Source: Amphiscolops sp. MND2022 (Eukaryota). From it: DNA of 64,000 bases. The notes under the pieces are model-generated. The model saw nothing but the letters and a program-made list of their open reading frames with translations, did no database searches and was not told the origin of the DNA. The DNA lies in NCBI GenBank assembly GCA_964187785.1, contig OZ076409.1, forward strand, positions 37,140,001 through 37,204,000. Direction: 5' to 3'. The position numbers and the translations under genes are program-made. Below are positions 8,496-41,569 of this stretch, in pieces; position 1 is the first letter of the stretch, and the number at the start of each line of letters is the position of its first letter.

Positions 8496-9692
8496 CGACA
8501 TCGATGTTTTTCTGACTCAAATTTTCTTTATGAGTATATGTTTAAAATTTTTGATTTAAATGTGAAATATTGTGCTTGATGTATTTGAAATTTTCTGTTG
8601 TTACAGCTGTCTTAGATCGTGATTTCAGAGAGAAAAGGTTTCTTGGTGAACTCGAGACTAGGGAATTTGAAGTGAAAAAGATCTCTAATATCCAAAGTTT
8701 CCTTCAATCAACTATCTAGAATCTGCAAACTATTTCAATGATTTAAGATCTGGATGCTCTTGATGTAGGTTTCCGAGAAAGAAGAGTCGTTCATCTAGAA
8801 TACCTTAGCTATACAATGGGCAATTGTATCATTTTTCGCGTTCAAATGGCTTTTTTTGCTTTGGTAGCTGAAATTGGTCAAAAATTTTCTCACTAATTTT
8901 TCACTTGAAGTAGATAAAACATGCTACAACAGAGGGTTCATTGGAAAAGGCCCATCGCTGAAGCTAACAAACCGTGTTCAGCAAGTGAATGAAGTCGCTG
9001 ATTCTTTGATTTGAGTCTCGTTTTCCAACTAAGATTTGAGAGGGGGTACTTCTCAACAAAAGTGTCCGGTGAAAGTTTATCCAGAACTCTGCTAACAAGT
9101 TTTTCCGAATCACAGAATAACTCCTCGATACCCACCCCTTAAAGCTTTGCGGTAGAGTTTGTTCCATCCTTTGAATGTACAGTTTTAGGTTTGCTGTCCA
9201 TGTAGCTATACCCTCGAGTTTGTTTCCTGTAATCCCTCGTTACAGCTTAACACCCGGGTTGACACTCTTGGCTGTATTGCTGACTTAGCTCGAGTCTGTG
9301 GTGAACTTGTGGAACGTTGGGACGATGTTAGTCTGTACTTCGGGACACATCGTTCAACTGCCGTGGCTGAAGTCAAGACTCAACCGAATTTTGAGTCGCA
9401 TGTGTTCGAGGACAGATTGTCGAGGCCACAATTTGCCGTTGTCAGATTTCTTTCAAACATTAGTAAGTTAATACCAAGAATTTTGTTTTTGTTTGTCTTT
9501 TAGTCTTGTAGTTTTTTTCTAGTTTGCGGGGGTAAAGGGATTGCTGGGATTGGGCTCTTTAGTGTATTGGTTATTGTGATCATTGAATTGTCAGGGGAAG
9601 CTAACTTTTTGATTATATATTTTTTGAAGGTTGCGGCTAGTCGTCAATGGTTGTTTGTTTTTTTCTTTTAGTCGTGGAAAAGTGTCCCAGAA

Positions 9693-11060
9693 TGTGTGCG
9701 AACGGACGGGATCGCGATGTCTGTTTTGCTCGTGCGTTCACTGCTTTTGTTCAAGAGTTGCGGTTGCTCGTGGAGCCTTCTGGCAGTGTGCCTGAGTCGT
9801 ACGAGCTATCGGGAATATTAACCGTGCCGACTGCTTGTAGAGGGAGTCCTAGTGAAGAGAAGTTTAGAGCTCTTTTTCGTCAGTACTTCCGGTTCGACAT
9901 AAATTGACAACAGCCTTTCTTCTACCGAGAAGTGCAACAGTTTCTGAGTGGCCTGTGTCTTTCTCTGGCTTGATGAGTCTCGCAGTGAAAATGATGATGT
10001 GTTGGACCTTACGCCTTCTGATCCGGTTTTGGTCTTTCGTGGAAATAAGGATCGACTGATTGATTCGTTACTCGATACTTGTCAAGTTCTGGTGCGCCAC
10101 CATTTTTGTGAGGAGGACTCAAGTGTCACTGTCTTGCTGCAATACAGTGACGTCAGAAGATTTTCTCGAGAAAAGTGACGGAGCCAGTCAAATGATGAGC
10201 CGGTAGTCGAAGACGTTTTCAACATGTGGTTATCGTACCCACATTGGCAGCGGTGCATCAAATCAAAAACTGTTTTACAATTTTGTTTTTCTGGGATACT
10301 ACGCAGCACATACGGGATCGCGTTTTGGGATCAAGAAGGTACTGTGCTTTCGGAAGTGGAGGTTGTATCGAGCCTAAATTTTGTTCGGAGTTGGTTTTCG
10401 CGTGGTGTCTCTGGTCGAACTCTTCAGCTGATCTCAGGAATGCTACGTCCTTGTGAGTCGACTGATTTACAAGTTTCCCGATTGCAAGACGCAGGGCGTT
10501 GTCATCCTTGGGATCAGTTGCTAAAGAAAGGCCTTAGCGAAACTCAGAATGTCTGTGAACTATCATGTTATCCGGTGCGCCAGCGGAAGTTACTATAGTT
10601 CCAGTTGACGAGTATTCTTCAAAAGTGTGTGCGCAGTTAGAGAGTCTGGAGAAGTCTCTTGTTAGTCCGCGATTACCCGGTAAAGGTGCTGGTAGAAATT
10701 CCCGAACGAAATCTCCCAAGGCTTTAGTTATTCGCGAACGACGTGACGCTGATGATGTTACCGTCTCGAGCGAGCAATCGGGACCGACGTTACAGAGTGC
10801 TGTGCTGTGACTATTGCTGCGAAATCCCCTACTGCCTCACATTCCAAGAGTGTGGGTTCCCGGTTTTTGGCGGCAAGGAGAAACCGTGGACGAAGGACCG
10901 GGGGTGTGGCCAAAAAACCTGTATGACGTCGTTATATGGTGGTCGACAGTTCTGACATGAGTTCGGAAGAAGGACCTACGCGTCGGCGAGCTGTCGCAAA
11001 ACCTTCAACTAAAGAGTCGAAGTCAAAGGTGATTGAAAGTGAGAAATCGGATCCTTAGAC
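9693..11060 (+). pseudogene. Decayed ORF of unknown function, antisense to the adjacent gypsy gag-pol
   Basis: A chain of ORF pieces (9647-9907, 9948-10178, 10224-10598, 10565-10810 and beyond). The 9948 and 10224 pieces share a frame separated by one TGA. GC content is raised and coding-like against T-rich flanks. Confidence 0.55.
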
Positions 11061-12776
11061 ATTCCTTATTCGAAGTACTCGTGTGATGTTTTTGGTTTTT
11101 GTTTGATTTATTTTATTTGCTCTTGTGGGCTGTTCCGCATTTATTTGGGACGTGTGTTTAGTTGTTCCCTGATGCTACGTATTGGTAACTGAATTCTTGC
11201 TGGTTAAATCCTCTTTTGTTCACTTTTGTTGACTGCATTGTAGCTGTATTTCGAGTTAGTTAAAGAGTTCTTTCAATTTAGAGATGCTCAACATATTTTT
11301 GCATGTTACATGACGTCTTGCGTTGTCAAAATGTGTACCCTGGATTTGCATGTTTTTTACTTATTCGGTTTCAAAATATTGGAGTTGCAGGCTTAGCTGT
11401 ACTTGTTGTTTCGTAGATGGTAAATTAATTACTTTCGCGACTACCATAGTAATGCTCTCACTCACCAAGCTCCACCTGCTGCTCAGCGTTGTTCATGATG
11501 AGGGCTTACATGTGACAGAGGTTGAAACATGAAGGGTGGCTGGAGCCGCAATGCTCCTACAGATGACGTGGTTTTGCGTCGTTTTTTATACCTTACTGAC
11601 AAGTTTTGTGACGGTTGTTTGTCAATATTTTATCTTGCTGTGGCTGTCAGTCAGTTTTTGGTTTACATGTCTTTTATTGCGTGACGTACTGTTTTATGAC
11701 GTCATCATCGTTGATAAGTGTCTTTCAACGTCATCACTCGTGATGCGTCTCATTGACGTTTTTGACGCTTAGTCGTTACATGTCTTAAGTCATGTTGTTT
11801 GCATTAATACATAAAGTTTTCTGATGACGGACTTTCTGTTTTGTGTTGTGACGACTGTATTTTACTGTCTTCATTTTTTCTTTTATTTCGTTTCTAGGGA
11901 AAGGTTTTTGTCGTCACAAAAACCCATCCAAAACTAACACTGAATCCACTTGCTAAAGAGCAAGCTTCATCTGAATATGCATGACAAACCACACAGACAC
12001 GCTTTTGACAACGGACGCACCAACATAGCCGACACTATGATTCTTGCGGCGGGAGGTTGAGGTTTCGGTTGAACAAGCGTAACCTTATTCAACCAGTTAG
12101 GTCTTGAAAATTTGTCATTTCAAAGTGTTTGGTGGCTTATTTTTGTTGTTTTTTCGTTTAATGAGCGATAGTATTATGTAGGACATTTCCTTTTGAGTGT
12201 GGCTGGTGAATGATATTACGTGAATTGCATAAATTATCAGCGATTTAATTTCCAATTAGATGTTTTTTGTTTTGCGGGAGTTCTTTGACGACTAAAGGTA
12301 CGCTTTGTCATAGTTACCGTTGTTGTGTAATTACTGCGTTGCTTGAGTGCGGCGTTTCTGATCCGTCTATTTCCGCACTGTTGAACGCTAGACGACGGTG
12401 AGTAGCAGTCGTCACGTAGCATTGCGAGTGTTTTTTGTTGAATGTTTGTAGGAATGTTAAATGTCTGAGTTATGTGTTACATGTGTTTTTTAAAAAAAGT
12501 GTAGGACACTCTCATTTTAGTTTCGTGTGCTGGAAATTTCTGTGTTGTACATTTATTTGTTTTTCAAGTGAGTTGCTAGTTTTGTCAGCTACGAGGCGAA
12601 GCTTACCAATTAGCAGGGAAGGACAAAAAGTGTGATTTTTCCGAAAGGTGTTGTAAACGTAGAACGTTTACCTGGTAGTGTCCACTCTTGATTTTTTTGT
12701 TTTAAGGTCTAAGCGTGGGACGCCTATTTGAGAACTTTATATGACTCTTAGTTAGTCCTCGTGTCTTGCATGAATT

Positions 12777-15700
12777 TTAGTAAGGCGTGTTTGACTTGGA
12801 GTTCGTGATGTCGCGGTAAGTTTCCGGGTTTGGTTCGGACCTTAGTAGATAACAAGTGATGTTATTACGTGACGTGACTTGTGTTCTGATGTTGTTGTTT
12901 GTCAGTTTGTTATCGTCGGCTGCAGTTCCATCGGGTTGAACGCGGTATTCGTCGTTTGTATTAGTTCTGACGACCGAGTCGTCAAGTGGTTGCTCCACGG
13001 TTTGCGGGAAGTTCTCAGGGATCAGTTGTAACTGTGGTCTGTCAGTTAACCTTTGCGCCTGCTCATAGTAAATGATGCCGTGTTCGGTATCAAACTCTTC
13101 ACGTTCTACTGTTTCGGGAGTTGGTTCGAAGTGACTTAGTTGAGGGATGTGGTCATTGGAGAGCTCTTGATCGTCGGACGCATCAGGGTCAGCAAAAAAG
13201 AGATTTGGGTCTTCGTCAATGTCCGGTATTGGTGCGTTCGGAGTGAAAGGACGTAGTCGCATCCTATGAACGCACTGAGTGCCGTTTTTTCTAATTATGT
13301 AGTTGAAGGTTGAGAGGACATTTACTACATTGAATGGGCCTTCCCATTTGAAATAGTTGAAGGCGATTTTGTCAGAATGAGTTGTGACTTTGGGGTTAAG
13401 TAAGAATGCGAAGTCGTTAACGTTTAGCGGTAACGCCTGTGCTTTGAGGTCGTAGTAGCTTTAGCTAGGCTTGGAGTATGTTGTTGTTTACTTGTTTGTA
13501 CGTTTCGTTGACTTGATTAAATAGTTTAGCTATGTCAGTTTCCGTTGTCTTGCTTTTCAGAGGGTTACTGAATTTAAGGTCTAGTGCGGTAAACGGAATC
13601 CTACCGTGGAACACTTCGCTGGGTGTACACTTAAATGACTGGTGGTAGGTGGTGTTGTGTGCCATGACTGCTAGGTTGACATACTTGTACCATTGGGGGT
13701 AGTCAGCTGAAGCGTTGAGTTTCAGAATCTGCTTCAGTCATTGATGGAAGCGTTCTACCATCCGTATGGTCTTGGTATGTTTTACAATCGCGTGTTCAAT
13801 TTTGATCCAGGCAGTTTTCATTTTTTCGGTCATGATGCTTGAAGTGGAAGCAGTGCCTTTGTAGGTAATGATAGTCTTCGGTACGAAGGCGTGTTCAGTG
13901 AATATCTGCATGAGGGCGTTCACTACAGATTTCGTGTCTGGTTTACGGATCGGGATAGCGAACAGATAACGCGAGAAGTAATCACCCACCGTCAGGATGT
14001 GCGTGTAACCATTTGAGCAAGGTAGTTCACCTACTAGGTCAATCTCTAGTACGTCTTCAGGACCATTGGAGGGGTCATAGATTTTCTCTAAAGGAGGGAC
14101 TAGTCGCTTTGGGTCAACAGACTTGGCTTTGATGCAATCGGTACAGTTACTTACATACTTTGAGACGTGTTCACTAAGTCCTGGAAGGTAATAACGCTTG
14201 CGGAGTTCTACCAACATCTTTGATGCCCCAGGGTGTCCCTGCATGAGGTCGCCATACATGGTCCTAATTATGGGCAGAGTAGAACTCTACCAGTGGTATT
14301 GAAAAAAATCCTGTACAAGACCTTGTCAACCACTTCTTAGACGTTTTTGGTTTTTTAAACGAATTTTTGGAAAAACGAACTTGCAAAGTTTTCGTGGTTA
14401 GGCAGTGGTTCGCTGTTTTCCAGGACGCGAACCATTTTTTGAACGTCCTGGTTACTTACCTGATCTTGGATACCTTGCGAATTCCCTTGCGGACATACCT
14501 GGTTTACCGTGTGTGGGTGTTGGCGCCGGGTAAACTTCGTCAGCATGATGGACGGAGCCTCGCCTGTTAGTACTGGCTCGAGGTGACGACTGATCATCTG
14601 AATCATCTTGACACGGTCGTCGTCATGCTGGTGTTGGCTGTGTGCGAGGGAATGCAACAAGCATTGCATTTGAGTGAGGTCGTTGTGATTGTTAATTGCG
14701 CCGAGTTGTTGTTGTTTGGGCGGGTCAACCGTCTCAGGTTGTTGCAGTTGTTCAGGGTCATAATCTTCTTCATCGTCATCTTGTTTCGGTGTTTTCGATG
14801 CCAGGTCGATCTTTAAGTAATGGACAGGAATCGTTGAATTTCAAGTGAATCCTACTTTCGGGGTTGATGTCGAGTCGAAACAAGTTGTCTGCTGCTGTAT
14901 TTTCTACCCCTGGCACATGGGCGAGCACGAAGTCAAACTGCAGTGCTTGGTCACATTGGTTCCAAAGTTTGGGTGGGATCCGTTTTGACTGGAGAAAGCG
15001 TGTCAGCGCTTTGTTGTCGGTCATCACAGTTGTGGGTTTTTTGACTCCCCGCAATATGTGTGCAAATCCGTCGAAAGCGAAGTGCATTGACAGGAACTCT
15101 TTCGCGTACATTGTCAGTGACATCTGGCCTTCAGTGAATCTCTGGGAACCGAGCGCTACAAGTGCATACGTCTTCTTGTTGCCGTCCTTGGTCTCTGTGT
15201 AGTCTTCGATGAGAAGTAGGTACCCCGCTGCATGTTCGCCTGCATCACACATGATGACGAGTTGCTTTTCGGGTAGTGGTAACATTAACGACAATTTTGC
15301 AGCCCGTACCAGATTCTTGTTGATGTCATAAATTGCATCCTTGTGTTCTTGTGTTAGTATGAAGTTGACATCTTTCTGCAACAGTTTGTACAGTGGTACA
15401 AGTTTTTTGGCTATTTTCGGGCTGTACTGTCTGTAAAACTGGACGAATCCGATGTATCTCTGCAATGTATTGACTGATGTTGGTAATTTCAGGTTTTTGA
15501 GAAATTGGTCGATGTGGCCCTCAAGGGGTTCGATGCCTTTTTTCGTTATGCTCCGACCCAGAAATTCAATCTTCGGGTGTCCAAAGGCGCACTTTGACAT
15601 TGAGAATTTCAGTCCTGTTTTTTGAATCTGCTGAAACACTGCCTCAATGTTGTCTACCAGCTCGTATACGTTGTTTGCCGAGACTCCGATGTCATCAACG

Positions 15701-17160
15701 TACTGTGCACGTTTGTGTGCTTTCACTATTGCATCAAGGTACTCTCGGATCGTACTGTACGCGAAGGTTTTGCTGCCAAAGTTGAATGCAAGAAGCTGGA
15801 TTGATTGCTCGTCGGCCATCTGGAGGCAGTTGTGGGCCTGTCAACAATCGAGCTTGCAGAAGTACTTCTTGCCTGCCATGTGTTGGGCCGCATCTGCCAT
15901 TGTGGTTTTAGTCGTTTTTGAGGAGGTGGTTGATGCGTATCAAGTCGACTAGTATTCGAAGTTTGCCATTGGGCTTCCGCTGTGCAAATATCGGGGAAGA
16001 GTATTTGTTGTACTGAAGTGTTGTGATAATCCCGCTTTCCTGCATCAGAGCCAGTTCAACCAGTAAGTCATCCTTCAAGTTGGTTGGAGTGGGTAAACTC
16101 TCGCGTACACAGGATCATCATGTTTAGGCGTTAAATTGATCTTGAAATCGGTGTTGAGGCCGATGTCCATACGATGACGTGCAAAAATCATGTGGTGTTT
16201 GACTAGTAGTGCTTCAATCCTCTCTTGCTCCTGCTCATTTAGGATTGAGTTGTCCCAGCTGAAACTCTTGAGAAACGTGTGTCGTTGTTCGCCGTCGCAC
16301 GTAGGATCAACTTTTTTTTTGCTCCTCGGAGTTGTGTGATTTCGTCGTATATTCGACGTTCGATTTTGTTGAGTTATTCGGGGTTGTCTCGCGTTTTGGG
16401 TGTTGGGTACCATCGTTTGTCCATGGTTGCTTCGGGTCTTGGATCAACTGGTTGATTACGTTGTCAACTTCGTCAGGGAGTTTGAAGATCAGTGTCAAAT
16501 GTTCCTTGGTCATGGGTTGGATGTTTCAGGCCTGGTTTGGAGTTAGTATTTTGAATAGTGCAATTGTTGTGTTCTGGGGGATTGTTATTGCGTGGTCCAT
16601 GTGGTTGGTAATTTGGGCGTAACTCCGTTGTTCCAGTATCTCAGACATCAATGGGGACAGTAGTAGTTCCGTCTTGCGTCCGAATGACGGGAACGCTTCT
16701 ACTGTGCCTGTTACAGTGCCAATGTCCTTTTCAGCTAGAAATGGAGAAGGACTTGTTATCGTACCATTGGTAATTTGGATTCTGAAGTCTGGTGCTGGGT
16801 ATGTTTGGAGTAATCGTCTCAGTTCGTTCTCAGACATTGCGCTCTGGATTGCTGCTGTGTCTAGCAATCCGTAGTTCTCGTATGCCCCGAATTCAAGAGG
16901 GACATAGAGCATCTTGTTCCTTCTGTCAAGTTGCTGCGTAGCGCCGAACTGTCTGATGGGTTTGTTTGTCTTGGGGGGTTCTTGTGGTTGTTCGTCTCTG
17001 CTTGTGTTGGGTGGTCAACTTGTTTGCCTGTGGGGTGAGTCTTCGTGTCCCGTTTCCGTTTGCGGTCATGGTTGTTTTCGGTCTGGCTACAGTCATTAGT
17101 CGTGCAGGTGGCGTCGTCGTCAACTAGAAGAAGGTTGTGGTAAATGTAGTGAGCCACCTT
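12777..17160 (-). pseudogene. pol of the large gypsy element (PR-RT-RNaseH-IN), fragmented
   Basis: Protease LLDTAAIQSAM; RT QYVDDIGV and KCAFG..IEFLG; RNase H MCDAGEHAAG and YAKEF; integrase GHPG..CTDC, EIDLVG and VERFHQ; C-terminal tail to 12777. Confidence 0.92.
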
Positions 17161-17419
17161 TTGAACGTAGTATCATTTGGAGGGTTGAGACTTTCTGTCA
17201 GTATGCTGCGGACATTCTGACATCTTGGCCGTAGAGTCGTAGTAGTTGTTAGTCTGTTGTTTGTTGCGCGCACTTGTAGTCTGGTTTAGTGGAGGGTGAC
17301 GTGGCTTCACAAGGTTTTTGATATGGATTCGATTTCGTCATTGTACTCCACGTCATAGCAGTCGTTGTCACAAGTCGTTGCCACAAGTCGTTGCCACGGT
17401 GGATTTCGATTTGGGTTGT

Positions 17420-18765
17420 CTATTCGGTCACTTGTGTGACCTGGTAAGCTGGTTGTTGGTTATTCTGGGACTGTTTAAAATCCCTGCGGAACTCTCGATT
17501 CTCTGTTGTCGACTGTTTCTCGTAGGGTACGTTTCTAAATGCTGAAGCTCCTGGTACCCTGTTCCTGCAATCTCGTGCTGAGTGCCCGACTTGCCCACAG
17601 ATCTGGCATACCAGCTTCGAGCTGTACCGTGGTTTGTCGATCTGTTGCTGCTGGCCGTTGTTGTTTGCTTGCTGTGGCCGTTGTTGGTTTTTTGTGTATG
17701 TGCAGTTTGCTTCATCTCTGAGGCGTTTACGGCACTCGATCCACTTATGGCCAACAATGTTGCAGTATCGGCAGTTGCCTTCGAACTTCTGTGTAACTTC
17801 TTTAGTGGTTGTGGGCTTTCCGGAGTCGTTGTTGGTTGGGGGTGATTGGTTAGCTTGTTGTCTCTCTTGGTAGTTGTCATGATTCAAGGGTTGCATGCCA
17901 GATGGCGGTTTTCTTGAAGAAGATTTTGTAAGAAAATCCGTAAATGATTCCACTGTTGGATCGTACCTCAATTGGTCAAATTTGTTTTTTGACATTTCTT
18001 TGAGGTCTTCCTTGGCGTATTCTTTGTTGAATGCTTGAAGAATGTCTGCCAGCGTCGTTTCGGTATTGATTTTCAGGGATGCCTGAACTCAATGGCCTCA
18101 TCCCTGAGAAGGTTTTGAAAGTAGTTAAGCTTTTGCTCTTCCGTCAGTTTCTGCATGTGTGGGCGGAGGTGGTTTTTGAGTAGGTGTTCAAACTCATTAT
18201 ACTTTTCTCTATTTCCACGAAAGAGTTTCCACGAAAGGGACTTGAGTTTGTGAGAGATTCGGTTGGATCACTCCATCAGTCATTGTGGTACGCAAGTTTT
18301 GTATTTCCGTCATTACGTCTTCCATTTGTGGTTCGGTAATGGATTGGGTATGTCCTCTTGCGTGGTGAACTACAGGCGTTGGGGGAGTTCTGCGTGGTTG
18401 TTGCAGGTTTGGAGCCGGCATTAAGTTCGTCGAGAGTCCTGTCACAATGTCAGAATGAGGCAACGACTTGAAGTTGCGGACGTTAGGGTCATTCTCTTCC
18501 CTACTGTTTGTAACTTTTTCAAAAAGGGCTCTAACCATACTTGTCCATTCGCCAATCTGTCTATTCATTTCTAAGAATCTCTGTTCTTTCCTTGATCTAT
18601 CGTGATCCCTTTCTTGGGACTTATCGCTTCATCACTACAATCGTTAAAGTAACTCCCCGAGTAGTGATCTGCCACGCTGATGTTATCTTCTTTATAAGAA
18701 TATTCATCCTCTCTTGTTTGCTCTACTCTATTCTCTCTAAGGATCTGGGATCTTGTATTCACCAT
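17420..18765 (-). pseudogene. gag of the large gypsy element, fragmented
   Basis: Zinc knuckles CRYCNIVGHKWIEC and CQICGQVGHSARDC, with a capsid-like segment (FDQLRYDPTVESFTDFL) upstream. Stops and frameshifts present. Confidence 0.85.
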
Positions 18766-21489
18766 TTTCGAGTTAAAACGTTAGTTTTGAAAGGTTTGAA
18801 TTATTGTTGAATTGGAAAAATGTTAATGTATTGGTAAGTGAGCTAGGTAAAAGGTTAATTTCGATATAGTGTAAAGTACGTCTGTTCTCAATGCTAGCAC
18901 AATTTAAACTGGTGATTTTCTACTTCGTTTTAGCTTTTTCTATATTTCAAGTCAAGCTTACATAATACCTAAAACTTTGCGTCTGTTTCTTCGCTGTTTC
19001 TCATTGATTTGGCAAGTCACACTTCAAGGTTCGTTAGGTGACTGGTAACTTCAGTCGTCGTTAATCTCTTACGCAGCACTTTCGCACCTGTTACTACAAT
19101 TCTAATCTTCACACTTTTAGCTCCGACTAAATTACGATTAAAGCATTGGTGGTAACTATGGATACAAAACTTTTAAATAATATAAATCAAAGCACTAATT
19201 GTTGGTGACGACTAATTGTTTCAGTTGTTGGTTTGAATCGACGCAATACATGAAATTTAACACTAGTGAATTCAATGGATTGATGAAAATGATGATGATT
19301 TTAGTGAAATACTAATCGATGCACTGTATAACTATATGTAAAAACTGCATGCAATGTGTTTTAGGGGAATTCACGACAGGATAGGCCGGCCGTTCTTCAC
19401 CGTAAAAATATTTCATTAGTTTTTAGTTGGTGTTGAGTTTCAATTGCATCTTCTGACGACTGTGGTGTGTCGTCGTTAAGTAAATCATGTCGTTCGGCAT
19501 GACAAAATGCATAATAAATTAGACTCTAAGAACCTGATCACGCATTATTTGATCTAAAAGGTGCTACCGAACAAAATGCAAGTCATTTATGTGTTTGAGG
19601 TAGGTGTAATTCATGGCCCCTGATGCAAATCTGATGGAAAACAAAGCAATGACATCAACGCATCTACGACCAAATTTCCACAGCCAGATCAATCCAAAAC
19701 TCAATGACACTCTTAGTCATCACAAAATCTTTAATCATTCGAAATTCATTATTGTGTTCGCCAGTGTGAGATTTATAACTACAGTGCAATTAAATACTCA
19801 TCAACTTCACCCCATTTTGTTGTGCGAATTGATGGTTTCACGAGATAGAACAAATTAGCACTTCATCATATCAGCCAATGGTAAAGAGAGAGTGGTGATA
19901 ATTGCGTCTTGACACCTGAAGTGACACTCCTGAACGTTACGCAATTGCAAAACCGAGTGAACCCGTTAACGAAATCTGCAAACGGTTAACCAGTTAATAC
20001 AATGAAATGATACCTTTGAAACTATGAAAAATCCCCAAAAACATCTAGTCGAAAGCAACTCGCCGAATGTTCTGCGGCAGAAAACTCGTCGCAAGAACAA
20101 GATACTCTCCGACCAATATAGAGCCTATTTTATAGCACTGTGTTTTTAAGTTCTAATTTATTATGAAGTATTACACTGTAAACAATAGAAGTGAAACATT
20201 TCGAGCAATTATATAACCAAAAAGCTATATTATGCGTAAAGCTGATAATTCTAGGCATAAATTATTCGACGAATTTATTAAAAATAAAATTCAGTCAATT
20301 TCCCTATTTTCCTTCCTGATAGAGGAAAGCAGGTTCCGAGGCTCCACATGGTTACTTTTTTCTACTTTTATATTCGGGAGATTTTCTTTGAAATTGCCCT
20401 GAGCATATTTTGAAAACTTACGTTCTTTATGCCTTGAGCAGGGCACCCTTTGCTGTCGCACCTGTCTTTTTAGTAGCAGTTTCGGCATGAAGTTTCAGCA
20501 AAAGTAGAGTATTTTTAGTCGGTTCTTTTCATAAAAAAGAGAAGACTCTTACAGTGACTAGTTTTTCGTCAGACCACCGACGTCATTCCACTTTTTACAG
20601 ACTTTGAGCTGAGAAGTTTCAAAGAGTACGCAAAGATGGCAAGGGGTATCCTTTTGAAATTTTTTAGGGGCTTGAGCCTTGCGAGGTGCCCATATGGTCG
20701 AGTTTTTTTTCGCAGATTTCAGGACATCAACAAACTTTGCAAATTTGTGAGACGATTTTCTCAAAACCGATAATAAATATCCATACCATGTTTTCGCTGA
20801 AAGTTCTGCAAGATCCTAGGCTACACTTTCGCGGCAAAAAATCCAAAAAAAATCGTTCTATGGTTTTTTCGCAAGTAGTTTTGGGAAACGCAGTTTTTGA
20901 CCTTTGGCGCGAGAACAAATACAGAGACAATGGTTTCATAAATTGCACAAGCATTTAATAGGCTACATTTTAGCCTAAGATGACGTCAAGTTTTTTTTCG
21001 TCTTCAGTTTTTTCGGGCAATAAAAGGCAAGAAAAAAATGTCGAATTTTTTTTTCATTCGTACCTCACGGAGTAAGGCAAAGATTTAGGCTAGTTGTTGT
21101 ACAAACGAAGTTTCCGTCATCAAGTATGACGCCTTCGTTTTTCTGCCGAAAATACTAAAAATTAAAAAAAAAACTCTTAGTTCGTTTATACTTGAGCTCC
21201 TATATCTCATGACCCAGATCAAATTAGGAGTTCATGGTTTCGTAAATTGTACGAGAGTTATGTAGGCTACGTTTTAGGTTTGAAGTGACGTCGAATTGTT
21301 TCCAGCTTGCTTTTTTGGGAAATTAAAAGGTTTAAAAGACATATCCGCATTTCTTTCGAACTTTTTTTCGTTGAGCATTTTAGTAAAACTTTTGATCTTT
21401 TTGAAACGTTAAATGTTTCAAGCGTCGACTTAAGACGTTCTCAAATTTTTTCCAACTGAATGCGAAAGACCACAACTCAGATTTGCAAT

Positions 21490-24400
21490 TGGAATTGCCA
21501 ATGACTCTTCGCATAAGGCGCTTCATCGACTTCATCGCTGCTTCCCATTAGTCCGCCGAAGTTGGGTGAGCGAGGAGGACTGGAGAGTCAATCAAACTTC
21601 CTCCCGACCAAAGATCGCCTTGAGGTCTTTCTTGAACGCCACTTTGCAAATGCACAGTGTTCTGAACAACTTCACAGGTGAATTGAAATTGTCCGGGTCT
21701 ACTAACGAAATACTAGGTGACGTAAACTCTATCATGGCTTTGACTTCTTGGCGGGATTCCACCTTTGTGAGGAGGGTCTGCGATTGGTCAGGAAAATATG
21801 ATCCCAACCACGTGGGTTCTTCAAACCAGAACTTCTGCTGAGCCACCAACTGCGTTGCTAGCCTTCCACGTAAGCACAGATTGCTGTGTTCTCTTCTGAC
21901 GACCCGTGAATGAATTGAGTTATTGGGACCATTGATTCAATTTGATAGACACAGTTAGAGACAAACGTGTTCCTTGGAGCGGGATCTGTCTCGATCCATG
22001 AGAAGGCGATCGTTGATTCTGAAAACAACATTGACATGTTCAGTGCGTGCTTCGAGTTTGATAGTTTCTAATTAACCGCTGATGCAAGTTAGGCACAGGT
22101 GCGTAGTGCTAGGAGCTCGAGACGAGGGAGTGTTGAGGGTTTGATTGGAGTCATCTTGCATTTTGAGTAAACGAGGTTTGAGGAGACGATGCCATCTTTG
22201 ACTGAGACCAGATAAACACAAGTACCATATGCTTTCGAAAGTATTACAGAAGATTGGCAGGGGCGCTTCATAAGTTTTGTGATGATGGGTTTTAGGGGTT
22301 TTGTAGCTGTTTTCGTAGGCCTTGTTAGGTTCTAGAAGGGCTTTGGGAAGACAACTAATCAGTGGGATTCAACTTGCGTAGAGGGAGACAGTTCTTCGTG
22401 AAGGCTTCAATCAAACTGGATTGAAGCCCGCATGCTTCCACCAGTGTATCAGCGTCACTAAGTAGATCGTCATTCCAAAAGTCACTGAGAATCACATTCT
22501 TTCTGTAAGTATTGTGTTCGTGATTTTTACCAATCTATTTGAGTGCCCGAGTTGAATGCTAGGATGAGCTGGCAACACCACACGTCACACGAGTCAAACG
22601 CAATCCTCGAATCTCGTCTGTCACGTAATCACGCCTCGATGGAAGTCACAATCTGATCCGTCCAGAGCCATTTGCCGGTACATCTTTGCCACATCTGCCG
22701 ACAACGCATGTTGGTGTAGGCGAAAGCGAATGAGGATGTCAAAAACATTGTATTGTAGGCGGGGTCCAAGCAGCAGGCAGTCGTTCAGGGAAAAGACTTT
22801 CGGAGAATTGCTGCCGGCATAAAACACGACACGAAGCTTGTTCGTCGTACTATCCTTGAACACACAGTATTGAGGTAAGCCTAAGCTCAAGCCTGAAGTC
22901 TGAGGAGCTTCTTCCGTGATGAATTCGCGATACTCTTGATTCACGTCATTGTGATTCTTGAATTTCCTTGCAATGTGAATTTTCTCTGCTTGGCCGTTTG
23001 AAAATTGTTCGAGGGACGAGCCTCAGACTTGAAGGGGAGACAAACAGTGATGCGGCCGTCATCTGCAACATAGGTCGCTGTGTTGTATCGTTCCACGCAC
23101 TGACGATTTTTTTGACATCAGCTTCACTCGAGGAATCTCGTCTACTTCCCAGAACCGAGCAAGGTCCAGTTCCACTGCAACTTGGGATATTGGCAACTTG
23201 GGATTGATATTCAAAGCCACGCACATGGGATAACACTCCTGTAACCACGCAGCCGAAGATATATTTGTGACAGTGCAGCCCGTGATCCTTCTTTTCCTTT
23301 AGAAAGAGATCATCATACGCATCCGCCCCCAACAGGAATTGAACAGGGCCAGGTTGATGACGTTTTATGTTTGCTAGTTTCATTGACTTTAATTGTTTCA
23401 AGTTATTGGGTTGAAGGTTTCTTACCTGTGATTGAGTTCAGCACCAGTGCTCTAACAGGCAAGTTTTGAGGACCAACTAGGAGACTGACTGACTCCTTTG
23501 CTGCTAGTTGCCGTCCACCAAACCCAGAGACCTTTATGACTGTTGAACGGGCAAGGTTGACTTTTGAAGCAGGATCCGCTGTGATGAAGGATGTTTGGGA
23601 CCCAGAGTCCAGCATGGCTCGAATCATTAGTGTCCTTCCACCTGTATCATCTGTGCCAACTATTGCTGTTGACAGAAGCACTGACGGGCCACTGATCATT
23701 GCACCGTTCGTCACACCACCATGCTGCTCAACTGAACGATCAAAGTGTAGCGATGTATGATGCATCCACATGCAAGTGCGGCAGCTAAAATTCGACGTCC
23801 AATCAGTCACGAAATACCGCCCACACAGTTCATGCACAATTCCTCACCATTGCTTTCCTCTCACGCGTGCGCAGTGCCCAACTGCTTGTAGCGATCATAT
23901 TGGAAGTTTGGATGGGGCCATTGCATTCTTTCATCTGACAACTTGCGGAATGCTCGCCAGTTGAGGAGTAGGTTTCTTGATGCATCGTCTTAGGTGTCGT
24001 TATGGGAACATAATCTACAGACTGGTCAACTCTAGATTCCAATGCGCGCTTTGTCTATTCATGAAGGAAGTCAATTCTTTGAATATCTGCGCCGGGATGT
24101 GCCAGTTCAAATGGGTTGCTTCATTGAGCATCAAGTTTCTCCAGTATACTAGTATTACATCCCATTGACCGACAGGAAATATCAATGCTTGCACATGTTC
24201 ATTCATCGAAACCGCAGGCTCGGCACTTGACTCCTTCTTTGTGGCTGGTAGAGCATGATGAGCATGAATTGCCGCTAGGTGCGCGTTCTTGATTCAACGC
24301 TTGTTGTTGAAGCGCTCCTCTAGCTTTCGCCTTGCAATGACAAGGGACGTGAGACAACTGCTGAATAACTAGATGTCAAATGATGCATAATATAAGTGGC

Positions 24401-39711: not shown

Positions 39712-40109
39712 GTAAGTGTAAATTTTTGATTCCACACACCTAACTGTAATTGAAAAACAGAACGATCAAGACAAGATCTAAACGAATGTAGACACCCGTA
39801 CTGACAACCCATGGTAACCCACCATTGGCCATCGGTGGACTACCGATGGCCACTGGTGAGGGAAAGTTAGCTTGCGTGGAGGCTTTCCCATTGGTGGACA
39901 ATTAGAAAATTTCGAAAATGAAAATTTCGTTCAAAATTTCTAGCAACTGATAAGATTCACTACACGAAATACCTTTAGACGTTATTCGCGCACCTGATGC
40001 TGTCAACTAGGGTAACAAACCTTTGGGGACCTTTCATCGACGGCCCTCCGGTGGCCCACTGTAGTCCACCGATAGCCCATCGGTGGCCATTGATCCTCAC
40101 CGCAAAAAT

Positions 40110-40364
40110 CCCCACCCCATTGATCCCCACCCCATTGATCCCCACCCCATTGATCCCCACCCTATTGATCCCCACCCCATTGATCCCCACCCCATTGATC
40201 CCCACCCCATTGATCCCCACCCCATTGATCCCCACCCCATTGATCCCCACCCCATTGATCCCCACCCCATTGATCCCCACCCCATTGATCCCCACCCCAT
40301 TGATCCCCACCCCATTGATCCCCACCCTATTGATCCCCACCCCATTGATCCCCGCCCCATTGAT
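40110..40364. repeat. 15-bp minisatellite (CCCCACCCCATTGAT)x17
   Basis: 255 bp, equal to 17 units, with three variant units. Confidence 0.97.
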
Positions 40365-41569
40365 CCCCACCGCATCGGTGGCCACCGATGGATTTCCCTG
40401 GGTTGTCAACTCAGCTAACGTTTTCATGAATCTTGTAAAAATCCTACAGCTTAGACAGCAATGGGACATGAATGAAAAAAGTAGCTTTGCCATATATGAT
40501 GGAACAGAAAAGTTTATATGGAGTTTTCAAACAGATATACGAATCCCAGTTCATGCATTTTGTATCGAATTTCTGTGCATATCCGAATCCATATAAAAAA
40601 AAGTTGAAATGCATGAATTTTAAGGAACATATTTAGTGGCTATAGGAGACAACGTCGTATGAGCAAGTGATTATGCAAACAATCGATGCAAGCAATCCGT
40701 CTGATTTTCAATGTATTTTCCAGGTAAGAGTCTATGTTCTAACGCCTACAATCTTAGAGCCTAAGATTTAACAAATTGACATGCTCAGTTGCAAATTTTG
40801 ATGAAAATCTAATTTTCCATTTGTAATGGCATTTAAGCAACGATCTTTGAACAATCGTAATCTTGTCCTGATGTGACAAACAGATTTTACAAAACACGAA
40901 CTGAAATTTATCAAATGAAATTGTTCAAACCACATAAGAAACAATACACATCACGTCAAATTTATCAATCATTCATGTTTGTCCGGCGTGTGACTTCGTA
41001 AAAGTTTTTGAAACATTGTCCGAATGCTGTGCAATTATCATGGGTAACATGAATATTTTATTCGTAGTCCGACAAATGCTTTTCTCGATTGACGTGAAAA
41101 TCTGATTTGCTAGTTTTATTATATTGTTAATTCGTAAGAAGTTGCCATTTCGCTCATCTTGTGAGGCTTTTGCTAAGCGTAATAACAGGCGTCCAATTAG
41201 CAGTTTTTTGTGGCCAAAGGTATAAAAAGACTACTTAATTGAGTCACTCGCCACGAAAATGTCGAATTTAATTAGATCATTATTCAAATATCGACGTGGA
41301 TGTATGAGGGACGTAATTTACTTTGTCAATAATAAAGGTGCAATAAAGTCACACTTTTCCCACTGAAAACAGAAGGAGAGACTAGAAACGAGGGTTTATG
41401 GCAGGAAAGGAGAAAGCATTTTTATGACACCTTGCGTCTCTTGTCGTGTCTGTGTTGACAACAAAGGAGGCAATCAACAAAGAGGATTACCGCCACAGAA
41501 TGTGAAAAAAGTGGGACCAAATTATTTAACAGCAAATGGTAATAGCGAGTAAATAGCATGCAATCATGT

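Follow-up and report, generated by a model that had tools for sequence, protein, structure and literature searches.

Does the broken plus-strand reading frame at 9693-11060 of this window (the whole 64,000-nucleotide stretch of Amphiscolops sp. MND2022 DNA that we analysed) belong to a real gene, and if so, why would a gypsy retrotransposon carry a gene that points back at its own pol? The first-pass annotation had described a frame of about 450 codons, of no recognised family and interrupted by a few stops and frameshifts, in a GC-richer block antisense to and downstream of a gypsy pol. The peptides that it quoted are present in translation, in pieces across the three plus-strand frames of 9693-11100, and alignment to an intact natural relative recovers the region as four pieces of 60-78% identity covering 458 residues. 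Measured against that relative, the window copy has three frame changes (near 9960-9970, 10560 and 10804) and 3 in-frame stops, and the GC content of the block is 0.45-0.51 versus 0.38-0.42 in the spacer. The ATG at 9693 that had been taken as the start we reject, because it is unconserved and the frame opens at a splice acceptor at 9672 (AG in 78 of 81 loci).

Searching the organism's own genome with the window ORF gave 31 DNA matches, several holding an open frame of 411-464 codons, and 1030 protein-level candidates. The best 117 of these went on to scoring, and every one matches, mostly at 40-47% identity; 95 are free of stops. Across 330 codons the exon 7 frame (numbering below) contains 0 stops in all six intact copies checked, compared with 7-21 in each of the other five frames, so it did not arise by chance. 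The window ORF is genuine and a member of a large, diverse family, and the window copy is decayed. A protein collection yielded 193 relatives, some of which (P0059, P0119 and others, on short contigs) are 21-28% identical to the scored own-genome copies; since the collection includes proteins of at most 27-28% identity to those copies, the family is probably present in other organisms as well. The viral contigs searched held no family member, and a lone metagenome locus proved to be a chance match within a bacterial gene.

The carrier is a large Ty3/gypsy clade in which the antisense gene lies between pol and the 3' LTR. Its architecture is clearest in a young 15-kb relative (L061/L062) with 1101-bp LTRs 99.9% alike, a 5-bp target duplication, a gag, and a pol in the gypsy order protease-RT-RNase H-integrase. 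Among full elements in general, LTR identity reaches 99.9% and target duplications measure 5 bp. The relatives possess paired LTRs, a primer site, a polypurine tract and a short target duplication, where the window copy retains only the 5' LTR. The window element spans 9272-19504 and, with gag-pol on the minus strand, comprises the 5' LTR (18448-19504, 1057 bp with TGT..ACA ends), a primer-binding-site-like sequence (18430-18447, one change at its start versus 13 relatives), a broken gag (approximately 17420-18780, beginning within the 5' LTR), and a broken pol (approximately 12780-17170, domain order taken from an intact relative). On the plus strand stand exon 7 (9672-11058) and a remnant of exon 6 (9272-9462, recognised by homology to relatives); this copy has neither a 3' LTR nor exons 1-5, and element homology stops at 9272. 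The block at 8599-9244, earlier proposed as a 3' LTR-like promoter for the gene, turned out to be an unrelated neighbour, as comparison with the 5' LTR and with 52 flanking stretches taken from relatives gave no match and its first 300 bases are part of another repeat.

Several other features of the window deserve mention in their own right. A separate interspersed repeat occupies 8560-8860, near the element's break, and 40 of 40 scored candidates match it. The start of gag inside the LTR means that each of the two LTRs carries a copy of about 112 gag codons (L061:37-372, L062:5123-5459, window 18448-18780), with the primer site falling within gag in L061/L062 and in the window; this arrangement recalls that of yeast Ty1. 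Outside the element, broken minus-strand frames at 21434-24000 resemble a second retroelement, of BEL/Pao type, and 40012-40446 is a tandem array of 15-base units. Between exon 7 and pol, the spacer holds non-coding blocks conserved across many subfamilies (11440-11742 and, within it in part, the short motif at 11698-11751), one of them hairpin-like with GATGA-type motifs flanking.

We assessed the linkage between gene and carrier in 83 loci with 10 kb of context, consisting of the window, 42 loci chosen for diversity and 40 further protein-search matches. At a distance of 2.5-3.5 kb downstream, 71 of them (39 of 40 in the last batch) have an antisense integrase; a conserved spacer motif occurs in 77, and neither is found in 5; the exon 7 core is intact in 66, a share that is overstated because the loci are best-scoring matches. 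The earlier placement, antisense to and downstream of a gypsy pol as an accessory gene tied to one pol clade, is borne out. So is the view that it does not look like env: we dismissed an env or env-like ORF given that the gene runs opposite to gag-pol and that exon 7, with a maximum 19-residue hydropathy of 1.35 in an intact copy, is therefore without a TM anchor, while a single peak of 2.07 in exon 5 corresponds to a predicted strand pair. As a separate observation, four copies 96-99% alike (L084, L088, L096 and L260) have an intact accessory gene and no integrase within 10 kb (for L084, another 9 kb contained neither RT nor gag), and they also carry an inverted second copy of the accessory gene from a different subfamily.

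How much larger than this ORF is the gene? In L061/L062, the strand opposite gag-pol has seven open segments between the polypurine tract and pol; they are bounded by GT..AG, and their phases join into 1093 codons (1093 aa). We number them exons 1-7 (analysis labels e1, e2 and e4-e8, such that exon 6 is e7 and exon 7 is e8); one further candidate, lying between exons 2 and 3, was discarded by eye for a stop in its frame. Conservation of the six exon 4-7 splice sites stands at 68/72, 69/72, 74/76, 73/78, 74/77 and 78/81 loci (94-97%, counting the loci in which the site could be located), compared with a background in introns of 0.13 for GT and 0.04 for AG; upstream donors behave alike (21/22 and 32/36 loci), and intron lengths vary in all three phases. 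From these conserved sites and intron lengths we predict an antisense gene of seven exons and six introns, and the window preserves one predicted phase-1 GT..AG intron at 9463-9671 on the plus strand (donor in 74/77 and acceptor in 78/81 loci). Ten copies share no AATAAA near the stop codon, and no longer spliced database protein appeared among 7989 candidates, which we regard as weak evidence. The window ORF is the last exon of this larger predicted spliced gene and no stand-alone gene, such that the reported frame of about 450 codons holds as a reading frame and falls short as a gene.

Codon substitutions indicate that this antisense gene is under strong purifying selection. Among 20 pairs of copies, the five measurable distant pairs (between subfamilies) all gave dN/dS of 0.06-0.14, far from 1, another 10 had saturated synonymous sites (pS 0.76-0.83, pN 0.08-0.27), and the 5 close pairs gave 0.10-0.46; the window copy against its intact relative gave 0.08.

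What kind of protein is being maintained? Exon 4 contains a CxxC..H..H finger (C37, C40, H57 and H63 in 12 of 12 rows) that Pfam zf-BED matches in 7 of those rows, at a best E of 0.028 and with scores below the curated cut-off. The exon 5 model (48 sequences, pLDDT 81.5) runs helix, three strands, helix, strand, helix, strand, helices. Foldseek puts Hermes, a hAT transposase, at ranks 1-7 (best E 6.3e-4), and VIA-align, which confirms an RNase H-like fold, places model residues 1-132 on Hermes 152-283 (Z 6.8, rmsd 3.7, 122 aligned). These similarities could also be read as a BED-like finger joined to some other RNase H-like domain from a host gene, an origin for which the sequence searches and generic folds offer some grounds: hmmsearch and hhalign against the genome's hATs and 120 database hAT-like proteins gave no significant link beyond the BED finger, and in VIA-align Pelota (Z 8.2, 83 residues) scores above Hermes, with other RNase H-like folds level or above. 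We judge that origin very improbable nonetheless, as Hermes leads Foldseek, as only Hermes and the ISCth4 transposase (tied with it in VIA-align) align over the whole 163-residue model including its flanking helices, and as the succession of finger, helices, RNase H core and long helical region is what we take to be the hAT order. Descent of the protein from a transposase is, in our assessment, very probable, and descent from a hAT in particular is probable.

Exon 7 would supply the last part of that order, as a predicted helical region followed by a basic, Ser-rich tail (17 K+R in 90 aa). We predict that it corresponds to the hAT helical and dimerisation region, based on its position in the gene, the motif order and the best hhalign register (E 0.17, non-significant, 168 columns on the hAT C-terminal region). 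Modelled alone, exon 7 is all-helical at pLDDT 50 and found no structural match in two libraries, a result that is uninformative at this pLDDT, and its Pfam and PDB sequence searches, including the Pfam hAT dimerisation domain, gave no match. Profiles of exons 4 and 5 had no useful match in PDB, DUF4371 matched nowhere (with controls silent too), and Atlas gave no match at 0.9, its rows at 0.83 being leads only. The first-pass description of an unknown family with no recognisable motif therefore still fits exon 7 itself and fails for the upstream exons, with their BED-like finger and hAT-like RNase H fold. Elsewhere in the genome, a multi-copy sequence (L205, L206) combines a tandemly repeated frame of 414 codons with, downstream of it, a short hAT dimerisation exon.

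Though built like a hAT transposase, the protein is no active member of that group, since both the catalytic triad and the terminal repeats fail. At exon 5 positions 22-31, in the first strand, 0 of 48 rows have D or E; the first catalytic Asp of Hermes, presumably residue 180, maps near position 29 of the model. The DDE triad is thus missing its first Asp, and its third position was placed by eye. Acidic residues do occur near the second catalytic position in 34 of 48 rows, and one Asp is invariant in exon 7 (17/17), so some metal site is possible. The CxxH that we assume to follow the fifth strand in hAT transposases was sought at exon 5 positions 106-119, where neither C nor H is among the four commonest residues. 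In none of the 3 elements checked is the gene flanked by a terminal inverted repeat (the best candidate is 11 bp, E 0.3). The 5 of 83 loci without downstream integrase or RNA motif, and the many hATs in the genome, might suggest a separate hAT transposon that can still move, either inserted into the retroelement or hitchhiking with it, but in view of the missing repeats, the absent first Asp, the fixed position in all subfamilies and the selection that persists inside the retroelement, this reading is largely refuted and in our view scarcely credible.

We then asked whether the gene and its carrier share a history. RT is 84-99% identical across most subfamilies, whereas the accessory protein falls to 35-45%; between L061 and L164, integrase dS is 0.002 and the accessory exons are saturated in dS; and one accessory-gene clade (support 99) is found on two pol backbones. 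Judging by these divergences and trees, the accessory cassette has been swapped between pol backbones (L061 versus L164; L086/L099). The finger itself comes in two types, named for Asn or Ser in its presumed recognition helix, and these coincide with a palindromic dyad, GACTG-N7-CAGTC. Of 9 LTRs from Asn-type elements, 8 contain the dyad, with 18 copies in all where shuffles give 3 or fewer, and four representative lineages contain 8 copies (shuffles at most 2), compared with 0 in 9 Ser-type LTRs; within 10 kb, the dyad occurs at 34 of 37 Asn-type loci versus 1 of 27 Ser-type loci, the 19 remaining loci being otherwise labelled or unlabelled. In the window the motif search located one, a candidate binding site in U3 at 19040-19056, and none in the 53 kb outside the element. 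The Ser type forms a single clade on the tree, so that the match between BED type and dyad amounts to one change; given that, and the physical linkage of LTR and gene, we read it as one event and not as repeated co-evolution. A host factor could be what binds the dyad. A second dyad for the Ser type was picked after the data were seen and is common in the background, and we dropped it as support.

A palindrome of fixed spacing is what a homodimer binds. ZBED1/DREF bind palindromes and self-associate (PMC7471704). On our preferred reading, which we hold with somewhat better than even confidence, the window ORF is the last exon of a selected antisense gene, whose product, predicted to be a disarmed hAT-type transposase, likely works as a dimer that recognises a specific sequence, the palindromes in its own element, and so activates that element or counters its silencing; their binding would likely switch the element on. 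Such a gene may have begun as a hAT DNA transposon inserted backwards in a gypsy ancestor, after which terminal repeats and catalysis would have been lost and DNA binding and self-association retained. The introns suggest that it was captured as DNA and not as mRNA, and they would survive reverse transcription because an antisense orientation hides them from splicing of the genomic RNA. The broader proposition, that a gypsy clade domesticated a whole intron-bearing hAT transposase as its own activator, with finger, palindromes and gene as an exchangeable cassette, we find about evenly balanced between true and false.

The same DNA binding might serve other ends. Transposase scaffolds hold DNA ends, and a gene of identical origin might act at integration, holding the cDNA via the dyads and aiding nuclear entry, end pairing or target choice; dyads in U3 and beside the pol end and the basic tail would suit this, but the U3 dyads sit 100-600 bases inside the LTR and not at its tips, and an integrase that shows the usual domains is already encoded by the element, which leads us to consider such a role unlikely. 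Repression is a further candidate: the protein might repress the element that carries it, limit its copy number, or regulate host genes, and domesticated BED proteins reportedly include repressors such as ZBED6 (PMC2780926). Convergent transcription could also yield double-stranded RNA (PMC7264820), but many carrying subfamilies were recently active, with near-identical LTRs, and we hold a repressor to be improbable.

RNA, finally, might be the target. At 11895-12025, on the gag-pol strand (minus), lies a conserved structured non-coding element without an Rfam match, present in 77 of 83 loci, in which 6 of 38 predicted pairs show two-sided changes and G-U pairs favour the genomic-RNA strand. 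A factor resembling Rev or CERV might bind it and export or package genomic RNA, as CERV of C. elegans Cer1 is needed for genomic RNA export (PMC10309623). We see this as decidedly unlikely, for the RNA element is nearly invariant across relatives where the protein falls to the low identities given above, and BED fingers are DNA-binding (PMC7471704). Self-activation or anti-silencing is favoured over integration, RNA export and repression because of the dyad data and the transposase and TnpA precedent, in which transposases activate their cognate copies and TnpA arose from a transposase (bioRxiv 10.64898/2026.08.24.746577).

How does this gene compare with known systems? In plants and in a fungus, antisense ORFs 3' of pol have been described whose origin and function are unknown (PMC7264820; PMC11963269). 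The gene here resembles them in position, orientation, presence in most copies, conservation and a suspected nuclear DNA-binding role, but those ORFs encode TRP28 or unknown domains and are called similar to no other TEs, and the word intron does not occur in PMC11963269, whereas here we predict six introns, a BED-like finger and a transposase-like fold. Pfam TRP28 (PF04195, Retand-type) had no match in the exons scanned (1, 3, 4, 5 and 7). Hermes and DREF/ZBED1 likewise have a BED-like finger before an RNase H-like core, with loss of catalysis predicted as in the domesticated proteins (PMC7471704). Unlike in those cases, the "host" here would be another transposon, and the gene is multi-copy, moves by reverse transcription, and has neither terminal repeats nor a Pfam hAT dimerisation match.

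By analogy, close functional parallels may be TnpA of Spm and, reportedly, VANC of VANDAL (PMC5735166), as TE-encoded, non-catalytic, sequence-specific factors serving their own family, which is what we predict here. TnpA is also transposase-derived, and that preprint (bioRxiv 10.64898/2026.08.24.746577) contains 0 occurrences of "retrotransposon" or "LTR". Both TnpA and VANC act for plant DNA transposons that belong to their own superfamily, whereas the gene here would put a class II protein to work for a class I element. Accessory genes that are novel or were captured, some crossing TE classes, are known in gypsy and other elements, including ORF3 genes in rotifer LTR elements (PMC5408684), captured ORFs in planarians (PMC6431247), a plant mobile domain (PMD) common to gypsy and MULE (PMC5418596), and CERV. 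The rotifer ORF3, PMD and CERV systems involve esterase, exonuclease, env-like, PMD or novel proteins, unlike here; "transposase" and "intron" are absent from PMC5408684, and CERV (PMC10309623) is made from a spliced mRNA of Cer1 itself, unlike an antisense gene. In the literature covered, with subscription journals and repeat databases lying outside it, we found no LTR element described with an antisense gene that bears introns and derives from a hAT or a BED protein, and what is new is likely a variant antisense accessory gene with a cross-class origin and a candidate target.

Antisense ORFs located 3' of pol have been recognised as a puzzle (PMC7264820), and here one likely has a traceable origin in another transposon class; together with candidate target sites and a module for DNA binding, that likely origin opens the question to direct testing. 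If our reading is true, a transposase would have been domesticated by a transposon and not by a host, the idea behind TnpA and VANC would extend to retroelements, and there would be an explanation for the presence of an intron-rich gene in an element that is copied through RNA.
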